From: an uncultured Dehalococcoidales bacterium | GTDB lineage: Bacteria > Chloroflexota > Dehalococcoidia > E44-bin15 | Assembly (NCBI GenBank): GCA_964443325.1 | Contig: CAYUCL010000004.1 | Coordinates: forward strand, 5,885-69,884 | Direction: 5' to 3' | DNA length: 64,000 nucleotides | Shown here: positions 39,661 through 48,617 of the stretch, piece by piece | How the letters are laid out: each line of letters begins with the position of its first letter | Position numbering within the stretch: the first letter of the stretch is position 1 | Made by a program: the position numbers and the translations under genes | The notes under the pieces: generated by a model | What the model saw: the letters and a program-made list of their open reading frames with translations, nothing else | What the model was told of the DNA's origin: nothing | The model's database searches: none

Positions 39661-40419
39661 TTACTTCTTTTTATCTGGCAGGAAGGCGCTGAGCAGGTCC
39701 AGCGGCAAGGGGAACACCAGGGTTTGGGTTTTCTCCGTAGCGATCTCAGTGAGAGTCTGTAGATAACGTAGCTGCAGCGTTGTCGGCTCCCTGCCGATGA
39801 CTTCGCCTGCCTGAGCCAGCTTCTCGGAAGCCTGTAGCTCACCCTCGGCGTGGATGATCTTGGCTCTCCTCTCCCTTTCCGCTTCAGCCTGGGCTGCCAT
39901 AGCCCGCTGCATCGTGCTGGGTAGTTCCACGTCCTTGACCTCCACCACACTCACCTTAATCCCCCACGGCTCCGTCTGGTCATCGATAATCTGCTGTAGT
40001 TGCTGATTTATCTTATCACGGTGCGCCAGCAGCTCATCAAGCTCCGATTGACCGAGCACGCTCCTTAAGGTGGTCTGGGCGATCTGATAGGTCGCCAATC
40101 TGTAGTCATAGACCTCAATCACTGCAGCCTCTGGATGCATCACCCTGAAGTAGACCACTGCATTGACCTTGAGGGTGACATTGTCCCTGGTGATGGCCTC
40201 CTGAGAGGGGACATCCATGGTAATGACGCGAGTGTCCACCTTACGCATCTTGTCAAAGAAGGGTATGATGAAACGCAATCCTGGCTTTCTTGTGCTCTCC
40301 AGTCGTCCCAGTCGAAACACCACGCCAGCCTCATACTGATAGATGACCTTTATGGCAGACGTCAGCAGAAAGAGCACTACTATCGCAATTATGACATATA
40401 CTATCCAGTCCATCTTCAT
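39661..40419 (-). CDS. SPFH/band-7 (stomatin-like) protein
   Basis: N-terminal TM helix followed by an SPFH domain. Its start overlaps the end of the upstream nfeD gene by 4 nt. Confidence 0.85.
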
Positions 40420-41723
40420 TCACCTCCTGTTTTATTTTCCCTGGTTACCACTAGTCTTAGTCCATCGACCTTTGTTATGACCACCTCCTCTCCTGATTCA
40501 ACTTTTCCTTCATCTACTGTTGCCTCCCAGAGTTCCCCGTGCACAAAGACCTCACCTTTTGGGTCAAGGGGTGTTCTAGCCACCGCCACCTTGTCCACCA
40601 TCGCGTCTCGCCCTGTCTGCTGCCGTGTTCGATGAGTGCGCAGGATCGATGCAATGACGAAGATGAAAAAGGCGGTAACAGCGATCACCACCCCGGCTAT
40701 AAGGCCAGGATTTATACGAAACAGTGGATCGGTCATCAAGACCATCGAGCCTATGGTCAAAGAAGCGATACCCCCCAAAGCAAGCAAACCATTGGTTGCA
40801 GTGAACATCTCCGCAATAAACAGACCAAAGGCAAGCAACACCAGTATAATACCAATATAATTAACCGGCAGCATCCCCAGGCCATAGAAGGCGAGCAAGA
40901 GACAGATTGCACCGACAACTCCGGGAAAGATCGTCCCTGGATTGAATAACTCTAACATTATTCCAAGCATGCCCAGGCTCAAAAGGATATAGGCAATATT
41001 GGGGTCAGTGATGGCGAATAGTAAGCGCTCTATAGAGCCCATGCCGATGTAATCGACACTGATACCCTTGGTCTCGAGGGTGACAACCTCCCCACTTAAT
41101 AGTGTTACCTGCCATCCATCAAGCTGAGCCAGCAGGTCGTCCATATTATCGGCCATAATATCGATGACCCCTAGCTCCAGGGCCTCTGAAGCGGGGCTTG
41201 ACTTGCTCTCCCTCACCGCGGCTTCAGCCCAGTCAGCGTTGCGCCCTCTCGTTTCAGCAATGCTTCTAATGTAAGCGACGGCGTCGTTTACCACCTTCTT
41301 CTCCATGGTTTCATCCATCCCGTCCTCGCCAAGGGCAACGGGGTGAGCCGCGCCAATTTCTGTTGCCGGCGCCATCGCCGCCACATGAGCCGCCAAAGTG
41401 ATAAAGGCCCCAGCCGAAGCAGCCCTCGCCCCCGAAGGCATGTAGACCACTACAGGAACATCGGCTCCCATAATATGTTTCACGATATCGCGCATCGAGC
41501 TATCAAGCCCCCCCGGTGTATCCATCTCGATGATACAAGCGGTAGCCCCGTGCTCCTCAGCCAGCTCAATCCCCCGGTCAATATAGCCAGCCAGCACTGG
41601 AGTGATCGCCCCATTAACCCTCAGGACAGCGACTTGGGAGCTCTCGGCGCTCACCCCTCCAGATACCAGGGTAAGAAACAGCCCAAGAAATATAACGAAA
41701 AGCCAAAACTTTCTCATAATCAA
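40416..41723 (-). CDS. NfeD-like membrane-bound ClpP-class serine protease
   Basis: N-terminal ClpP-like domain, membrane helices and a C-terminal OB domain. The stomatin operon partner follows it. Confidence 0.8.
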
Positions 41724-42036: not shown

Positions 42037-43272
42037 ATGAAGGTATCCAAGTGTAAAGGGATGGTCGATCTGCTTCCTCTTGACATGACCAAGTTTCGGC
42101 ATATAGAGCAGGTGTTTCGAGACTCCTGCCTAAAACGGGGCTATGATGAGATAAGAACACCGACTCTCGAATATCTCCACCTTTTCACTGCAAGTGGGAC
42201 GCTGACCCCAGATATGCTTGGTAGAGTGTATTCCTTCCTCGACTGGGATGGCTGGAGCGGGGAGAGGGTAGTTCTAAGACCTGATGGTACTATACCTGCT
42301 GTCAGGCTTTACCTGGAAAAACTAGAGAGCGATAAGATAACGAAGCTTTTCTATGTAGAAAACACCTTCACCTTTGAGGAAACTGGAAGCGAACGGAGGG
42401 AACGCTGGCAATGTGGCGCTGAACTGATCGGCAGTAGCGAGCCACTAGCTGACGTGGAGCTAATGCTTTTGGCCACAGAGGTTCTGAGAGAGCTTGGCAT
42501 TGGTCCGCTGATGGTGAGGCTGTCCCACGCTGGCTTAATCAAGACGCTCCTGGCGGAGCTCGGGCTGGGGGCAGCCGAGCAGACAGAGATATTCGATCGG
42601 GTCTTGGAGGGAGACATAAAGGCATTGGGTGCAATAAAGACCGATAATGCTGAGCTAGAGAGAGCTCTAGCCCTTTTGCTGGATGTCAAGGGCATCTCGC
42701 CTGAATTTGTGGGGAATGTCCGGGCTCTATTGGGGAAAGCCTTACCCAATTTTGAGCCTAGCCTCAATGACCTTGCCAGTATTACTGAAATGCTCAGTGC
42801 TATGGATTGCCCTTATGAAATCGACATCACCTCTGGGAGAGGCTTCGAGTACTACACCGGCATTATGTTTCAATTCTATTCCTCCACAGAGCGGGTAGGG
42901 GGAGGGGGAAGGTACGACGATTTGATCCCTCTGGTGGGCGGCCCACCTATCCCCGCCTCTGGATTTGCCCTATATGTGGATCGACTAATGGATATGTTGA
43001 AGATGGAGGCAATCTCATATCAAAGAGTTTTAGTCAAGCCCCTGGCCAGTGATATGAGCGTATTGAAGACAAGCTTGGAGACCGCCCGCCTTTTGAGAGA
43101 GGCAGGCTACATTACCGAGCTGGATTTAGGTCAAGAAAAACCATCTGGTTATCGATGGCTTCTTTCTATGCCCAAACATGGCCTATTCCAGTTGGTAGAT
43201 CAGGTTACCGGGAAAAAGAGTAAGGCATCTTCTCAAGCAGAGGTCTTGAAGATAATGGAGGAATCCAATTGA
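42037..43272 (+). CDS. hisZ: ATP phosphoribosyltransferase regulatory subunit (HisRS paralog)
   Basis: Class II aaRS-like fold without an anticodon-binding domain. It sits immediately upstream of hisG and overlaps its start by 4 nt. Confidence 0.8.
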   Translation: MKVSKCKGMVDLLPLDMTKFRHIEQVFRDSCLKRGYDEIRTPTLEYLHLFTASGTLTPDMLGRVYSFLDWDGWSGERVVLRPDGTIPAVRLYLEKLESDKITKLFYVENTFTFEETGSERRERWQCGAELIGSSEPLADVELMLLATEVLRELGIGPLMVRLSHAGLIKTLLAELGLGAAEQTEIFDRVLEGDIKALGAIKTDNAELERALALLLDVKGISPEFVGNVRALLGKALPNFEPSLNDLASITEMLSAMDCPYEIDITSGRGFEYYTGIMFQFYSSTERVGGGGRYDDLIPLVGGPPIPASGFALYVDRLMDMLKMEAISYQRVLVKPLASDMSVLKTSLETARLLREAGYITELDLGQEKPSGYRWLLSMPKHGLFQLVDQVTGKKSKASSQAEVLKIMEESN

Positions 43273-44669
43273 AGCTGGCGTTACCAAAGGGGCGACTTCT
43301 CCAAGACACGGCAGCTTTGCTTGAGAAAGCGGGGCTTGGTCTTACGGGATATAATGAAAGCGCTCGCTCCTATCGCCCCACATCCACCAAATTTAGTGAC
43401 CTATTCCCCAAGGTATTTCAAGAGAAGGATATCCCCATCCAAGTGGCGATTGGAAATTATGATTTGGGGATATGCGGTCTCGACTGGGTGGAGGAACTCC
43501 TGGCCAAATACCCTAGCGGCGACCTGGTGAAGGTGGGAGAGTTGGGCTATGGCAAGAACGATTTGTATGTAGTTGCCAGCAGGTATGCCGGTGTATCCTC
43601 TGTTGGAGAAATCAACAACGGATTTGAAAAGGTGCGAATCGTAAGCGAATATCAGAACCTGGCTGAATTATTTGCTCTCAGGCAGAGGTTAAGGAGGTTC
43701 AGCATTCTCCCCATATGGGGGGCTGCTGAGGTCTATCCACCAGAGAGCGCAGAGCTCGCCATAATTGCCGAAGCCTCGGTGGGCAGCTTTGCAAAGTATG
43801 ATCTTGTCCCCTTAGCCAGAATTCTCATGTCCAAAGCAGTTCTAATCGCCAATCGGAATAGCCTGGCAAAAGCCGCTATGAGCAAGCTTCTTACTTACAT
43901 TCGCACCACCGAGGCAGTGACTGAGGAAGAGTCGCCTATGCCCATTGTTATGGGAGGAAGGTTAAAGAAGCTGCCTAAGGACGATAGCGTGATTCGCCTT
44001 GCTCTGCCCGACGGACACCAACAGCGCCCTACTATGGAGTTCTTAAAAGAAGCAGGAATTGGCATCCGTGGCTATTCTGAGCCATTGAAAACTCGCCGAC
44101 CCGCTATAGACATGAATGGTACGAGTGTAAAGGTGATCAGACCTCAAGATATGCCAAGCCAAGTGGCGAATGAGAACTTTGATCTGGCGGTCACCGGGGA
44201 AGACTGGCTCAAAGACCATCTTTATCGCTTCCCTTCAAGCCCCGCGAAAAAGATTTTAGGCTTGGGCTTTGGCAGGGTAACCATTGTTGCCGTTGTCAGC
44301 GAAGATTTGCCCATTAACGATGTCAATCAACTCAGGAATCAAGTGGGAAGATTGCTTGTAACGGTTAGGGTAGCTTCGGAGTACGTCAACATCGCCGATA
44401 AGTATGCCAGGGATAATCATCTGGAGCGCTATAAGATAATCCCCACCTGGGGAGCAAGTGAGGCTTTTCTCCCCGAAGATGCCGACCTGCTAATCGAAAA
44501 CACTGAGACGGGGAAGACCTTGAGTAAACATAAACTTAGAGTTATCGAAACCCTTTTCAAATCTTCAGCATGCCTCATCGGCAGTAACAGCGCTCTGTCA
44601 GATCCAATAAAAAGAGGCAGGATCGAGCATATTATTAAGATTATGGAAGAAACAGCCAAAAGAGGCTAA
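43269..44669 (+). CDS. hisG: ATP phosphoribosyltransferase, tandem-duplicated fused form (2 × short HisG)
   Basis: Both residues 1–~230 (KLALPKGRLLQDT...) and ~235–466 (IRLALPDGHQQRP...) are HisG-like. Only the second half keeps the PRPP-loop ETGKTL; the first half has SVGSFAKYDL at that position. Confidence 0.8.
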   Translation: MKLALPKGRLLQDTAALLEKAGLGLTGYNESARSYRPTSTKFSDLFPKVFQEKDIPIQVAIGNYDLGICGLDWVEELLAKYPSGDLVKVGELGYGKNDLYVVASRYAGVSSVGEINNGFEKVRIVSEYQNLAELFALRQRLRRFSILPIWGAAEVYPPESAELAIIAEASVGSFAKYDLVPLARILMSKAVLIANRNSLAKAAMSKLLTYIRTTEAVTEEESPMPIVMGGRLKKLPKDDSVIRLALPDGHQQRPTMEFLKEAGIGIRGYSEPLKTRRPAIDMNGTSVKVIRPQDMPSQVANENFDLAVTGEDWLKDHLYRFPSSPAKKILGLGFGRVTIVAVVSEDLPINDVNQLRNQVGRLLVTVRVASEYVNIADKYARDNHLERYKIIPTWGASEAFLPEDADLLIENTETGKTLSKHKLRVIETLFKSSACLIGSNSALSDPIKRGRIEHIIKIMEETAKRG

Positions 44670-44845: not shown

Positions 44846-45607
44846 ATGCCACCGCTTTGCCTACATTTGAGTATAATAAAAGAAGCAGCAGAGCTGCTTC
44901 AAAATCCCATATTGAACCAAAACATGGGGGGTTACGCTTTTGGAGCCACCTTGCCTGATGTTCATATCATTACAGGTCTCGATCGAGAAGAGACCCACTT
45001 CTTTGACCTTAGTAAGGAAGACTGTGAGAGCGGCACCAAGACCATTTTTAAGGCTCACCCTAATCTTGCCCAAGTTGAGAAACTGGATGGCGCAACCAAG
45101 TCCGTCGTTGCAGGCTATCTTTCTCATCTCATTACAGACGAAATCTGGATACTGGATATCTATCGGCCTCTCTTTAGCGATTCATCACCTCTTAGGGAAA
45201 ACGCAATGGCTAATATGTTCGATAAGCTGATCCAGTATGAGCTCGACCGTCGGGAGCGAGAAGATAGGGCAGCGATGGAAAAAATCCGAACTTATGTCAT
45301 TGGCTGGGAGCCAGGGGATGACATCGATTTTATCGATAAGCCTGCTTTGATAGAGTGGCGAGATTTCGTGTGCTCTGCAGCAATTCGCGAACCAAACCTG
45401 GCCCTTTTCCCTTTCTTTGCTAAAAGGTTTCTGTTACCCAGGCTAGAGGTGGATCCTACGCAGTTGGAACAATTCTTTTCCTCATTACATGCCAATTTGG
45501 AGTGGATCATCCAATATGTCACCCCTGAGCGACTCACCGCCTTCAGAGAAAAAGCAGTAAGCCAGTCTGTAGTGCTGGCGAGGGAGTATCTAGGTGAGGA
45601 TTATTAG
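44846..45607 (+). CDS. Hypothetical protein inserted in the his operon
   Basis: 253 aa with no confident family assignment. It overlaps the hisD start by 14 nt. Confidence 0.35.
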   Translation: MPPLCLHLSIIKEAAELLQNPILNQNMGGYAFGATLPDVHIITGLDREETHFFDLSKEDCESGTKTIFKAHPNLAQVEKLDGATKSVVAGYLSHLITDEIWILDIYRPLFSDSSPLRENAMANMFDKLIQYELDRREREDRAAMEKIRTYVIGWEPGDDIDFIDKPALIEWRDFVCSAAIREPNLALFPFFAKRFLLPRLEVDPTQLEQFFSSLHANLEWIIQYVTPERLTAFREKAVSQSVVLAREYLGEDY

Positions 45608-46925
45608 GGACTTCGAGGAAGCGAAAGCCATATTGCAGCGTTCTCCCTTCGAGCCCGACGAAATCCCTATTAACATGAAACAAAGGATAAAGAACGTCTT
45701 TAGCAAGGAGCTTACTCCTGAGGAGGCAGTGAGACGGATTATCGCTGATGTGCGAAATAAAGGGGATGCCGCCCTTTTTGATTACACCAAAAGGATCGAT
45801 GGTGCATTGCTTACCTCCCTGGAGGTGAGCACAAAAGAGTTCGAAGAAGCCCATGAAAAGGTTGACAGCGAGCTTATTTCCGCCCTCAATACCGCTGCTG
45901 AGCAGGTGCGCTCCTTTCACCAGCTCCAGATACGCCATGCCGTCAAGGAATTCACCGAGGGTGGGCTGGGGCAAATTGTGCGTCCCCTGGAGAGGGTGGG
46001 CGTCTACGTGCCCGGCGGCACAGCCTGTTATCCTTCAACGGTGCTGATGACCGCTATCCCCGCTAAAGTAGCAGGGGTCAATGAGGTAATCGTCGCCACA
46101 CCACCAACGCAGGATGGCGAGATTCCAGCACCTACGCTGGCGGCAGCGAACATAGCCAAGGTAGACAGGCTGTTCAAGGTGGGAGGCGCTCAAGCGATCG
46201 CCGCCCTTGCCTTCGGCACCCAGTCCATTCCCAAGGTTGACAAAATCTGTGGACCCGGCGGTCTTTTCATCATTCTGGCGAAAAGGATGGTTTTTGGCAC
46301 TGTCGATATCGATGGCCTGGCGGGACCCACCGAGACAGTGATTATAGCTGATGAATTGGCGAGTCCCACTCTTTGCGCCGCCGATCTCCTGGCACAAGCG
46401 GAGCATGACGTGATTTCCTCCGCCATCCTGATAACCACGTCATCCAAGTTGGCTGAAGAGACGAGCCAGGAAGTCGAGCGCCAGCTCAAGGAGCTGGAGA
46501 GGGCCCAAATCGCCCGACAATCGCTGGATGAAACGGGCAGGATAATCCTGGTCACTGATATGGACCAGGCTATCGCGTTGGTGAACCTTTACGCCCCGGA
46601 GCACCTTTCCCTTATGGTGCAAAAAGCCTCGTCTTATATAGAGAAGATCCGCCATGCAGGGGGAATCTTCATCGGCGAAAGCACCCCTGAGACCTTGGGC
46701 GACTATGTTGCTGGGCCAAGTCATGTTATGCCCACGGAAGGCACCGCTCGCTTCCGCTCCCCCCTCGGCGTCGGCGATTTCCTCAAGCTCACTACTGTTG
46801 TATCTTTGAGCGGTGAGGACTTGGAGAAACTGGGGCCCGCAGCCGCCACTATCGCCAATGCTGAGGGGCTCACCGCCCATGCACGCTCAGTTGAGTTACG
46901 GCTCAAGAAAGGGGATACGCAGTGA
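45594..46925 (+). CDS. hisD: Histidinol dehydrogenase
   Basis: The family length is right. Its stop overlaps the start of hisC. Confidence 0.85.
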   Translation: MRIIRDFEEAKAILQRSPFEPDEIPINMKQRIKNVFSKELTPEEAVRRIIADVRNKGDAALFDYTKRIDGALLTSLEVSTKEFEEAHEKVDSELISALNTAAEQVRSFHQLQIRHAVKEFTEGGLGQIVRPLERVGVYVPGGTACYPSTVLMTAIPAKVAGVNEVIVATPPTQDGEIPAPTLAAANIAKVDRLFKVGGAQAIAALAFGTQSIPKVDKICGPGGLFIILAKRMVFGTVDIDGLAGPTETVIIADELASPTLCAADLLAQAEHDVISSAILITTSSKLAEETSQEVERQLKELERAQIARQSLDETGRIILVTDMDQAIALVNLYAPEHLSLMVQKASSYIEKIRHAGGIFIGESTPETLGDYVAGPSHVMPTEGTARFRSPLGVGDFLKLTTVVSLSGEDLEKLGPAAATIANAEGLTAHARSVELRLKKGDTQ

Positions 46926-48034
46926 ACACCCCGAATAGAGGCATCGAGAAGATAATCAGAGGCGACCTGTTGCGCCTCAATGCCTACCAGCCTATTGTCC
47001 CCCTCGATGTACTCAGCCTAGAGGCTGGCGTCCCTGTAGAGGGCGTTATAAAGCTGGATGGCAACGAGAATCCATATGGCTGCTCGCAAAGGGTGAGGGA
47101 CGCCCTCGCTGCTTATCCCTTCTATCATATCTATCCTGACCCGGAGCAGAGAGAGGTACGCCAGGCTTTGGAGGGATACGTTGGGGTCGGGGCAGAGTAT
47201 ATCCTTGCCGGTGCCGGCAGTGATGAGCTTATCGACCTGATACTGCGTCTGTTCCTTAATCCCGGAGATAAGGTGATCAACTGCGTCCCCACCTTCGGCA
47301 TGTACTCTTTTTGCACCGAGGTCTGTGGTGGAGAAATAGTCGATGTGCCGCGGGACAAGTCCTATGCCGTCGACGTCGCTGGAGTGAAACAGGCTATCGA
47401 CGAGAAGACAAAGGTCGTCTTCATCGCCTCGCCAAACAACCCCACAGGAAACATCGCTGCAGAGAGCGATATCCTTGAACTGGTGAAAACGGGTATCGCG
47501 GTCGTGGTCGATGAGGCATATTACGAGTTCAGCGGAGTCACTGTAGCCCCCCTGGTTACTCAGTACCAGAACCTGATAGTATTGCGGAGCTTCAGCAAGT
47601 GGGCAGGGCTTGCCGGTCTACGCATCGGCTATGGAGTATTTCCAACCTCACTTATTGAACACCTCTTGAAAATCAAGCAGCCCTATAATATAAATGTGGC
47701 AGCTCAAATTGCAGTCAAGGAATCTTTTGCCGACATCGATTACCTCAAGGATACAGTGAAGGCGATAGTTGCGGAAAGAGAGCGGCTTCTCACCGAACTG
47801 GAGAACGTCAGGTTTCTCAAGCCATGGCCTTCTCAGGCAAATTTCATTTATTGCGCCGTGCTTGATGGAGATGCCCAGACGATCCACAAAGAGTTGCAGA
47901 AGAAGGGCATCTTCATTCGCTACTTCGACACCCCTCTGTTGAAGAACTCGCTCCGCATCAGCGTGGGCAAGCCGGAGCATACCGATGCCCTTATAGAAGC
48001 GCTTCGAGAAATAGGAGGAAAAGGCAGTGGGTAA
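46922..48034 (+). CDS. hisC: Histidinol-phosphate aminotransferase
   Basis: Class II aminotransferase carrying a PLP lysine motif (SFSKWAGLAGLRIGY). Confidence 0.85.
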   Translation: MNTPNRGIEKIIRGDLLRLNAYQPIVPLDVLSLEAGVPVEGVIKLDGNENPYGCSQRVRDALAAYPFYHIYPDPEQREVRQALEGYVGVGAEYILAGAGSDELIDLILRLFLNPGDKVINCVPTFGMYSFCTEVCGGEIVDVPRDKSYAVDVAGVKQAIDEKTKVVFIASPNNPTGNIAAESDILELVKTGIAVVVDEAYYEFSGVTVAPLVTQYQNLIVLRSFSKWAGLAGLRIGYGVFPTSLIEHLLKIKQPYNINVAAQIAVKESFADIDYLKDTVKAIVAERERLLTELENVRFLKPWPSQANFIYCAVLDGDAQTIHKELQKKGIFIRYFDTPLLKNSLRISVGKPEHTDALIEALREIGGKGSG

Positions 48035-48617
48035 AAGATCGGCTACCATAACCCGCGAGACTACCGAGACCAAGATAAGCATCGAACTCTCCCTCGATGG
48101 CACAGGCAAGTTTGACATTAAAACCGGCAGCAAGATGTTCGACCACCTGCTTACCCAGCTAGCTCGGCATGGCTTATTTGACATAAAGATTCGTGCCTCT
48201 GGATGGGACCAGCACCATGTGGTGGAGGATGTCTCCATATCGCTGGGCAAGGCATTTGGCGAGGCGCTTGGAGACAAAAAGGGCATCGATAGGATGGGCC
48301 ATGCATTTGTGCCCATGGATGAGGCACTAGCACTAGTGGCAGTGGACATCGGGGGTAGGGGATATGCCGTGGTCGAAGTCCCATTCAAGCGAAAGAAGAT
48401 CGGCGACCTGGAAAGCGACATGGTACGCCATTTCCTCGAGAGCTTCGCCATCGAGGCGAAGATGAACATACATGCCTGGGTGCTCGCTGGCATCAATGAG
48501 CATCACAAGGCGGAGGCGATGTTCAAGGCGCTAGGCCGGGCGCTGGATGCAGCTACCAAGCTGGACGAGCGAATCGCCGGGGCAGTGCCCAGCACCAAAG
48601 GATTAATCGAGAGCTAG
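48027..48617 (+). CDS. hisB: Imidazoleglycerol-phosphate dehydratase
   Basis: Two histidine-rich repeats (HHVVEDV, NIHAW...HHKAEA). 196 aa. Confidence 0.85.
   Translation: MGKRSATITRETTETKISIELSLDGTGKFDIKTGSKMFDHLLTQLARHGLFDIKIRASGWDQHHVVEDVSISLGKAFGEALGDKKGIDRMGHAFVPMDEALALVAVDIGGRGYAVVEVPFKRKKIGDLESDMVRHFLESFAIEAKMNIHAWVLAGINEHHKAEAMFKALGRALDAATKLDERIAGAVPSTKGLIES

Follow-up and report, generated by a model that had tools for sequence, protein, structure and literature searches.

A fused double hisG gene in a 64,000-nucleotide (nt) stretch of DNA from an uncultured Dehalococcoidales bacterium (contig CAYUCL010000004.1, positions 5,885 to 69,884 of the forward strand; hereafter the window) probably encodes a covalent pseudo-heterodimer in which two old paralogues of HisG together form one composite active site in each chain, still under the control of HisZ. 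ATP phosphoribosyltransferase (ATP-PRT), which catalyses the first step in making histidine, is a textbook allosteric enzyme, and two forms of it have been described, the long form (HisGL) and the short form (HisGS) with HisZ. We consider it rather likely, if with a little more reserve, that the fused protein belongs to a third natural ATP-PRT architecture, an obligate pseudo-heterodimer that is fused in Dehalococcoidia and split elsewhere, in which a catalytic HisG is paired with an arginine-donating pseudo-HisG that keeps the HisZ-binding dimer shape. A widespread third form, if true, would revise the two-form picture of this enzyme. The evidence comes from the internal anatomy of the protein, the selection acting on it, its occurrence in several hundred genomes, and a set of unfused gene pairs with the same pattern of motif losses.

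Two unequal HisG halves in one chain

The gene starts with a TTG codon that overlaps the TGA stop codon of an upstream hisZ-like gene, with GGAGGA lying 6 nt 5' of the start. Both family models for HisG match two stretches of its 466-amino-acid (aa) product, with total scores far above their cut-offs (Pfam PF01634, 193.3 bits vs 25.5; the NCBIfam equivalog TIGR00070, 228.8 bits vs 75.75), and the best stretches for both models fall in the C-terminal half (C-half). Each half separately matches HisG structures when compared by phmmer with chains in the PDB, at a distance (24-48 bits). When residues 1-233 were aligned by BLASTP with residues 234-466, the two halves were 33% identical over 204 columns with an E-value of 5e-40, so the internal duplication is far beyond chance. 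The protein is two HisG catalytic cores with a variable linker of about 35 residues between them; no Pfam match to the regulatory domain HisG_C was found in it, and the C-half ends about 25 residues past its core. The gene and its parts, with positions counted from the first letter of the window, are listed below, where entropy is the mean column entropy in an alignment of 92 fused homologues and PRPP is phosphoribosyl pyrophosphate.

43269..44669, + strand: fused double hisG, 466 aa plus stop codon (open reading frame, Pfam, NCBIfam, BLASTP and homologue clusters)
43269..43883, + strand: N-type HisG core, residues 1-205, predicted non-catalytic (entropy 1.47 bit)
43365..43367, + strand: codon of Arg33, at the position of the trans-acting arginine (aligned with Acinetobacter baumannii Arg53, equal to Psychrobacter arcticus Arg56)
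43761..43802, + strand: degenerate stretch IIAEASVGSFAKYD, residues 165-178, at the place of the PRPP loop in the N-terminal half (entropy 2.70 bit)
43884..43988, + strand: variable linker, residues 206-240 (entropy 3.15 bit)
43989..44666, + strand: C-type HisG core, residues 241-466, predicted catalytic (entropy 1.18 bit over residues 241-445)
44007..44018, + strand: invariant P-D-G-H, residues 247-250 (canonical HisG: P-K-G-(R/S))
44496..44522, + strand: PRPP-binding loop ENTETGKTL, residues 410-418 (aligned with the canonical D..TG.TL motif)

Conservation of the N-terminal half (N-half) is good apart from the place at which PRPP would bind. Its core keeps the motifs LPKGR, SRSYR, DIPIQVAIGNYDLGICGLDW and PPESA(D/E), and its loop equivalent is nearly as variable as the linker (2.70 vs 3.15 bit). 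The PRPP loop of the C-half (residues 409-422), with an entropy of 0.90 bit, has its E/D, N, T, T, G and T nearly invariant in the 92 homologues, which share the consensus E-N-T-E/Q-T-G-x-T-L. In the protein from the window this loop reads E410-N-T-E-T414-G415-K-T417-L418, where E stands in place of the leading D of the family pattern D-x-x-x-[ST]-G-x-T-[LM], and the aligned residues 170-179 of the N-half are SVGSFAKYDL. The initial annotation of the window had described the protein as two HisG-like halves of which only the second keeps the PRPP loop, had read the first as a pseudo-enzyme domain fused to the active second one, had noted that hisZ is still present upstream, and had proposed aligning the halves with each other. 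The double family matches and the alignment of the halves bear out the duplication, the loop is indeed confined to the C-half, a hisZ-like gene (42037..43272) lies directly upstream, and the entropy of the loop across homologues supports the reading of one domain as a probable pseudo-enzyme.

The same annotation had called the N-half a degenerate copy, which holds for its PRPP loop but not for the rest of the domain. Compared with five relatives, the ratio of nonsynonymous to synonymous substitution rates (dN/dS) is 0.04-0.12 in the N-half, 0.10-0.14 in the C-half (four comparisons with estimable dS) and 0.29-0.78 in the linker in four of the five comparisons (0.09 in the comparison with locus L002), with dS saturated in every comparison but the closest one. 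The N-half is not decaying, and at a dN/dS of about 0.1 it is under purifying selection like that on the C-half.

An AlphaFold2 model of the fused protein, built from a 12-sequence alignment, has a mean predicted local distance difference test score (pLDDT) of 78.6 and a predicted template modelling score (pTM) of 0.70. Strands and helices follow in the same order in both halves of the model, and residues 212-240, in the linker, are without secondary structure, with a pLDDT of about 50-65. A Foldseek search of the PDB with this model returned only HisG chains at the top, and short-form HisGS chains matched it with E-values of about 1e-16 and target-normalised TM-scores of 0.77-0.83. The fused protein is thereby predicted to have the two-domain, periplasmic-binding-protein-like fold of HisG.

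Complementary motif losses in fused and split forms

When N-type and C-type sequences were aligned together with 13 ordinary, single-copy HisG sequences, the C-type group proved to retain the four canonical residues of the PRPP loop, D, T, G and T (the D as E), and the N-type group to retain none of them. The reverse appears to hold for the arginine that acts across the dimer interface. By phmmer alignment of the N-half, R33 stands opposite Arg53 of A. baumannii HisGS and R9 opposite Arg29, and an arginine occupies the R33 column in 83 of the 92 fused sequences and in all eight split N-type proteins described below. The same column of the three-group alignment holds arginine in 85% of ordinary HisG and 100% of N-type sequences and is unconserved in the C-type, where the C-half from the window has K274 and its homologues have a mixture of residues (G40, A11, V9 and others). 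A profile-profile alignment by hhalign, gap-free in that region, reproduces this pattern, placing the N-type 'sR.YR' over the canonical 'R.yrp' and the C-type '..rRP' over its last three positions only. As aligned, the losses are complementary, with the N-half keeping the trans-acting arginine without the PRPP loop and the C-half doing the reverse, as would be expected for a dimer left with just one of its two active sites.

Motif 1 of the C-half is unusual as well. The D, G and H of its P-D-G-H are each present in 92 of 92 fused sequences, and D-G-H recurs in all eight split C-type proteins (with P replaced by A in L088); H250 occupies the position of P. arcticus Arg32. D-G-H or D-G-S also occurs in single-copy HisG homologues, for example P0268, a protein of long-form length (308 aa) with P-D-G-H, and since the motif is found in such a long-form homologue it is probably compatible with activity. 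The difference between the halves at this motif (KGR in the N-half, DGH in the C-half) was considered as evidence of a shared site and rejected, because Arg9 is unconserved in split N-type proteins and because D-G-H or D-G-S is present in single-copy HisG. As a separate observation, the P-D-G-H of P0268 would fit a C-type lineage that derives from, or shares ancestry with, a particular long-form clade.

The fused gene is far from unique. In a scan of GTDB, with one genome per species and two patterns, at least 571 matches were confirmed; as two patterns were used, the number of carrier genomes lies between about 285 and at least 571. Several hundred GTDB species genomes, almost all Dehalococcoidia, thus carry the fused gene, which answers the suggestion in the initial annotation that further double-length hisG genes be sought. 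The 80 best loci among these at least 571 matches are all single-frame over residues 1 to about 460, and 78 of them gave complete fused open reading frames (ORFs) of 463-483 aa. At the protein level, more than 120 clusters span the full length of the fused protein at 56-100% identity; their members are 458-493 aa long, save two truncated entries, and the labelled ones are Dehalococcoidia or Chloroflexota. An identical protein (P0001) is encoded on 7 contigs, and the window is 94% identical to L001, from a metagenome-assembled genome (MAG) of Dehalococcoidales. No named cultured carrier (e.g. Dehalococcoides, Dehalogenimonas) was found among the labelled matches of a protein search seeded with one Dehalococcoidaceae member, whose labels were MAGs or Dehalococcoidales bacterium. 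A few carriers (L031, L033, L088 and P0294) are labelled not as Chloroflexota but as Deltaproteobacteria, Calditrichales, Tectomicrobia or Bathyarchaeota, and these labels could reflect mis-binning or horizontal transfer. The fused double hisG is a large, old family and not a one-off.

Eight loci (L081-L084, L085, L086/L087, L088, L089, L090/L091, L092/L093 and L094) carry the same two paralogues as an unfused pair. In all eight the order is hisZ, N-type hisG (219-254 aa) and C-type hisG (229-253 aa), with the two hisG genes in different frames and spaced from a 26-nt overlap to a 118-nt gap; one of these pairs is present in four independent assemblies, and another in a genome from NCBI as well as in a Logan assembly. 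Moreover, the motif pattern is the same in all eight pairs, with SR.YR and a scrambled loop in the N-type protein, and D-G-H and an intact loop in the C-type protein. The eight N-type proteins have eight different loop sequences. Where they are annotated at all, the split N-type genes are named plain ATP phosphoribosyltransferase, and they are probably mis-annotated as active enzymes.

In a neighbour-joining tree of 76 sequences over 215 columns, all N-type sequences fall in one clade (bootstrap 98/100) and all C-type sequences in another (83/100), with ordinary HisG apart (71/100), and fused and split members are interleaved. The N-type is 25.6% and the C-type 30.6% identical to ordinary HisG. 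Separate N-type and C-type clades, within which fused and split members are mixed, indicate one old hisG duplication, followed later by several fusions or fissions.

A proposed single composite site and its alternatives

The structures of short-form HisGS offer a model for how two such halves might cooperate. The subunits of the HisGS dimer are arranged head-to-tail, and the crevice that separates them contains both active sites (PMC10795190). In P. arcticus HisGS with HisZ bound, Arg56 crosses the dimer interface to the pyrophosphate of PRPP in the other subunit, and the R56A substitution lowers activity 42-fold (PMC9734150). Arg53 and Arg29 of A. baumannii correspond to Arg56 and Arg32 of P. 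arcticus, and Arg53 lies in the active site (PMC10795190). In the mechanism that we propose, both positions of the HisGS dimer would be filled by diverged copies within one polypeptide. The C-type half, which retains the PRPP loop, would do the catalysis. The N-type half would have a dead site of its own because its PRPP loop is lost, and since it keeps the fold, the interface and R33 it would complete the site of the C-half and preserve the dimer-shaped surface to which HisZ binds. The composite site would thus consist of the C-half cleft and R33 of the N-half. On this proposal the loop-less N-half would keep R33 because its live partner needs a donor arginine, and the C-half would lack one because a dead partner would not. 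The holoenzyme would have the composition HisZ4:(HisG-HisG)2, in which a fused chain sits on either side of a HisZ tetramer and the usual four active sites are reduced to two, and HisZ would still supply activation and histidine feedback. We infer from sequence alignment alone that the halves pack in a dimer-like way and that R33 reaches the site of the C-half, and we likewise infer the inactivity of the N-half, the binding of HisZ and the stoichiometry. Given that the losses are complementary, the 'degenerate' half probably contributes to the working of the single active site and is more than ballast.

Several observations weigh against this mechanism. Two arginines of the C-half, R276 (76/92) and R277 (88/92), are conserved 2 and 3 residues past the column aligned with Arg56, and one pairwise phmmer alignment puts R276 opposite A. 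baumannii Arg53, which makes the 'loss' of the trans-acting arginine in the C-half dependent on the alignment; the conservation of R276 has no explanation if the N-site is dead. The site of the C-half is not fully canonical, since it has a histidine at the Arg32 position and an aspartate at the preceding lysine position. The N-half retains residues on the PRPP side (E154 and A161-D/E162) that are not obviously required for a purely structural role. Finally, the hisZ-like gene scores below the NCBIfam cut-off for hisZ.

The retained residues of the N-half would be accommodated by a different function, in which the N-half is mainly a regulatory ligand-binding module, its disabled cleft reused to sense AMP/ADP, guanosine tetraphosphate (ppGpp), histidine or phosphoribosyl-ATP (PR-ATP) and to modulate the catalytic half, with arginine donation secondary or absent. 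Strong purifying selection (dN/dS about 0.1) and the retention of most domain-I motifs, including the canonical G..D.G..G.DW, alongside E154 and A161-D/E162 are in keeping with such a role, and AMP is known to span the PRPP and ATP sites in long-form HisG (PMC3896937). We nevertheless regard it as unlikely, as HisZ, the usual regulatory partner, is retained beside the fused gene in essentially all loci, and the loop lining the pocket (residues 165-178) is almost as variable as the linker, unlike a conserved ligand site; outside that loop, moreover, the trans-acting arginine is the one residue that distinguishes the N-type from the C-type.

It is quite improbable that both halves are active, with PRPP bound by the N-half through a non-canonical loop, which would make the protein simply a HisG dimer in covalent form with both of its sites working. 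HisG models do match both halves, and the PE.A(D/E) segment and K-G motif persist in the N-half, but the N-type has none of the loop residues D, T, G and T left and no replacement consensus has taken their place (2.7 bit; all different in the 8 split sequences), and the N-type is more distant from canonical HisG than the C-type (25.6% vs 30.6% identity).

Less probable still is that the fused protein is not the ATP-PRT of the cell but a neofunctionalised paralogue that acts on a different substrate or has become purely regulatory, and that a canonical hisG lies elsewhere in the genome. The distance of both halves from characterised HisG (24-48 bits by phmmer to PDB chains) and the D-G-H that replaces K-G-R in motif 1 of the C-half are what such a paralogue might look like. 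However, the gene consistently sits between hisZ and hisD-hisC-hisB, its match to the equivalog TIGR00070 (228.8 bits) is well above the cut-off of 75.75, its C-half keeps the PRPP loop and other canonical columns, and no further HisG-like sequence was found within the window.

An error in assembly or sequencing, by which two genes were falsely joined or a frameshift between them was missed, is the outcome that the initial annotation had named as a refutation. It has nothing in its favour beyond its a priori possibility and the fact that some apparent single-domain database entries are fragments (P0156, for example, is a truncated member of a 473-aa cluster). We give it practically no weight because the same single-frame fusion is conserved across independent assemblies, recurring in more than 120 protein clusters, on the 7 contigs of P0001 and in independent MAGs, which yielded 78 complete ORFs.

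Operon setting and relation to known systems

In the window the fused gene stands in the order hisZ, fused hisG, orf253, hisD, hisC and hisB. The genes around it are as follows.

42037..43272, + strand: hisZ-like gene, 411 aa, a paralogue of histidyl-tRNA synthetase (HisRS) without the anticodon-binding domain (Pfam tRNA-synt_His only)
44846..45607, + strand: orf253, conserved his-operon gene with a weak Pfam match to Zn-dependent phospholipase C
45594..46925, + strand: hisD (Pfam Histidinol_dh, 541 bits)
46922..48034, + strand: hisC (Pfam Aminotran_1_2)
48027..48617, + strand: hisB, IGPD domain only (Pfam IGPD, 192 bits)

Among fused loci for which upstream sequence is available, a hisZ-like gene lies directly upstream in essentially all, with hisD and hisC downstream. 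No second HisG-like or HisRS-like sequence was found within the 64-kb window, and a separate full-length HisRS is encoded in related loci. The product of the hisZ-like gene scores 224 bits against the NCBIfam model hisS, below its cut-off, and 200 bits against hisZ, for which the cut-off is 271.65, and its sequence matches in the PDB are a mix of HisRS and HisZ. As the scores lie below both cut-offs, we call it a putative HisZ on the basis of its context and architecture, and it appears to represent a divergent branch of HisZ that accompanies the duplicated HisG.

The sole match of orf253, whose 3' end overlaps the start of hisD, is to the Pfam family of Zn-dependent phospholipase C (23.9 bits vs a cut-off of 26.8), and its single-sequence structure model is uninformative (pLDDT 36.7). 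Counterparts are present at L090:3747-4502, L094:3977-4735 and in about 25 of the loci L001-L080, and H7, D38, H51, H94 and D98 are invariant in 12 homologues. Since the operon is without a known histidinol-phosphate phosphatase (its hisB is IGPD only), the metal-phosphoesterase-like orf253 is a candidate for this missing step. No T-box or his leader was matched in an Rfam scan of positions 40-50 kb of the window.

Upstream of hisZ, and divergent from it, are genes for an NfeD-like membrane protease and an SPFH/band-7 protein (40416-41723 and 39661-40419, both on the - strand). The nfeD-hisZ arrangement is retained even in the distant split-form loci L090, L092 and L094, and this synteny is unusually stable for unrelated functions. 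Several split loci share more of the neighbourhood of the window, with the divergent nfeD and a Zn_dep_PLPC-like gene before hisD.

Reviews of his-gene structure give only the long and short forms of ATP-PRT (PMC8305728, PMC3896937), and we found no description of a duplicated, tandem or fused HisG, of a HisG pseudoenzyme or of hisG in Dehalococcoidia or Chloroflexi in the searchable literature, outside which most subscription papers lie. Genome annotation and metabolic models of Dehalococcoidia label the fused genes simply as 'ATP phosphoribosyltransferase'. If the proposed mechanism is true, two different pseudoenzymes, HisZ and the N-type HisG, are part of the holoenzyme, which has half as many active sites as usual. 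Nature would then have provided an experiment on two current questions, the activation of a distant site by HisZ via a cross-dimer arginine and the need for both sites of the dimer, in which evolution appears to have left one site and one donor arginine. The system would also be a clean example of the path from a homodimer with shared active sites to an enzyme/pseudoenzyme pair and on to a fusion. The enzyme family is well understood and the evolutionary pattern familiar, and the fused form is widespread and cleanly interpretable.

The nearest known system is the short form, HisGS2-HisZ4-HisGS2, of P. arcticus, A. baumannii, Lactococcus lactis and Thermotoga maritima. The fused protein shares with it the core fold, the absence of a C-terminal regulatory domain, an adjacent hisZ-like gene, the dimer as the presumed functional unit, a PRPP loop (in the C-half) and an arginine at the trans-acting position of P. 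arcticus Arg56 (in the N-half). It differs in that diverged paralogues, about 29-33% identical, take the two dimer positions within one 466-aa chain, that a single PRPP loop remains and the trans-acting arginine is found only in the half without it, that one active site is predicted per dimer-equivalent and two per holoenzyme, and that motif 1 of the catalytic half is D-G-H, not K-G-R. The short form is a homodimer of chains of about 205-230 aa with two equivalent sites, a description that a 466-aa chain with non-equivalent halves does not fit.

The long form, a homo-hexamer in Escherichia coli, Mycobacterium tuberculosis, Campylobacter jejuni and Methanothermobacter thermautotrophicus, has the same core and, like the fused protein, is a single chain longer than HisGS. 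In the PDB, the M. thermautotrophicus enzyme (2VD3) is the best structural match of the whole model and the best sequence match of the C-half. The extra length of the fused protein, however, is a second, N-terminal catalytic core and not a C-terminal histidine-binding domain. A hisZ-like gene is present beside it, unlike in organisms with the long form, which are without hisZ (PMC8305728).

The split pairs of Chloroflexota-like MAGs (L081-L094) belong to the same two clades as the fused proteins, have the same motif pattern and hisZ-N-C order, and often lie in the same nfeD...hisZ...Zn_dep_PLPC-like...hisD neighbourhood; they differ in being two separate genes and in the unconserved Arg9 of N-type motif 1. 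Outside this family, the closest pattern is that of the prozymes, paralogue pairs such as trypanosomatid S-adenosylmethionine decarboxylase (AdoMetDC) and its prozyme, or those of deoxyhypusine synthase, in which an enzyme and an inactive paralogue share active sites. As in the mechanism proposed here, a homo-oligomer with sites at its interface has been duplicated, residues have been lost in complementary fashion, one complete site is left per pair, and the 'dead' copy is still required. The fused HisG differs from these pairs in fold, chemistry and lineage, all of which are unrelated, in that its pair is often covalently fused, and in having a presumed second pseudoenzyme partner, the HisRS paralogue HisZ.

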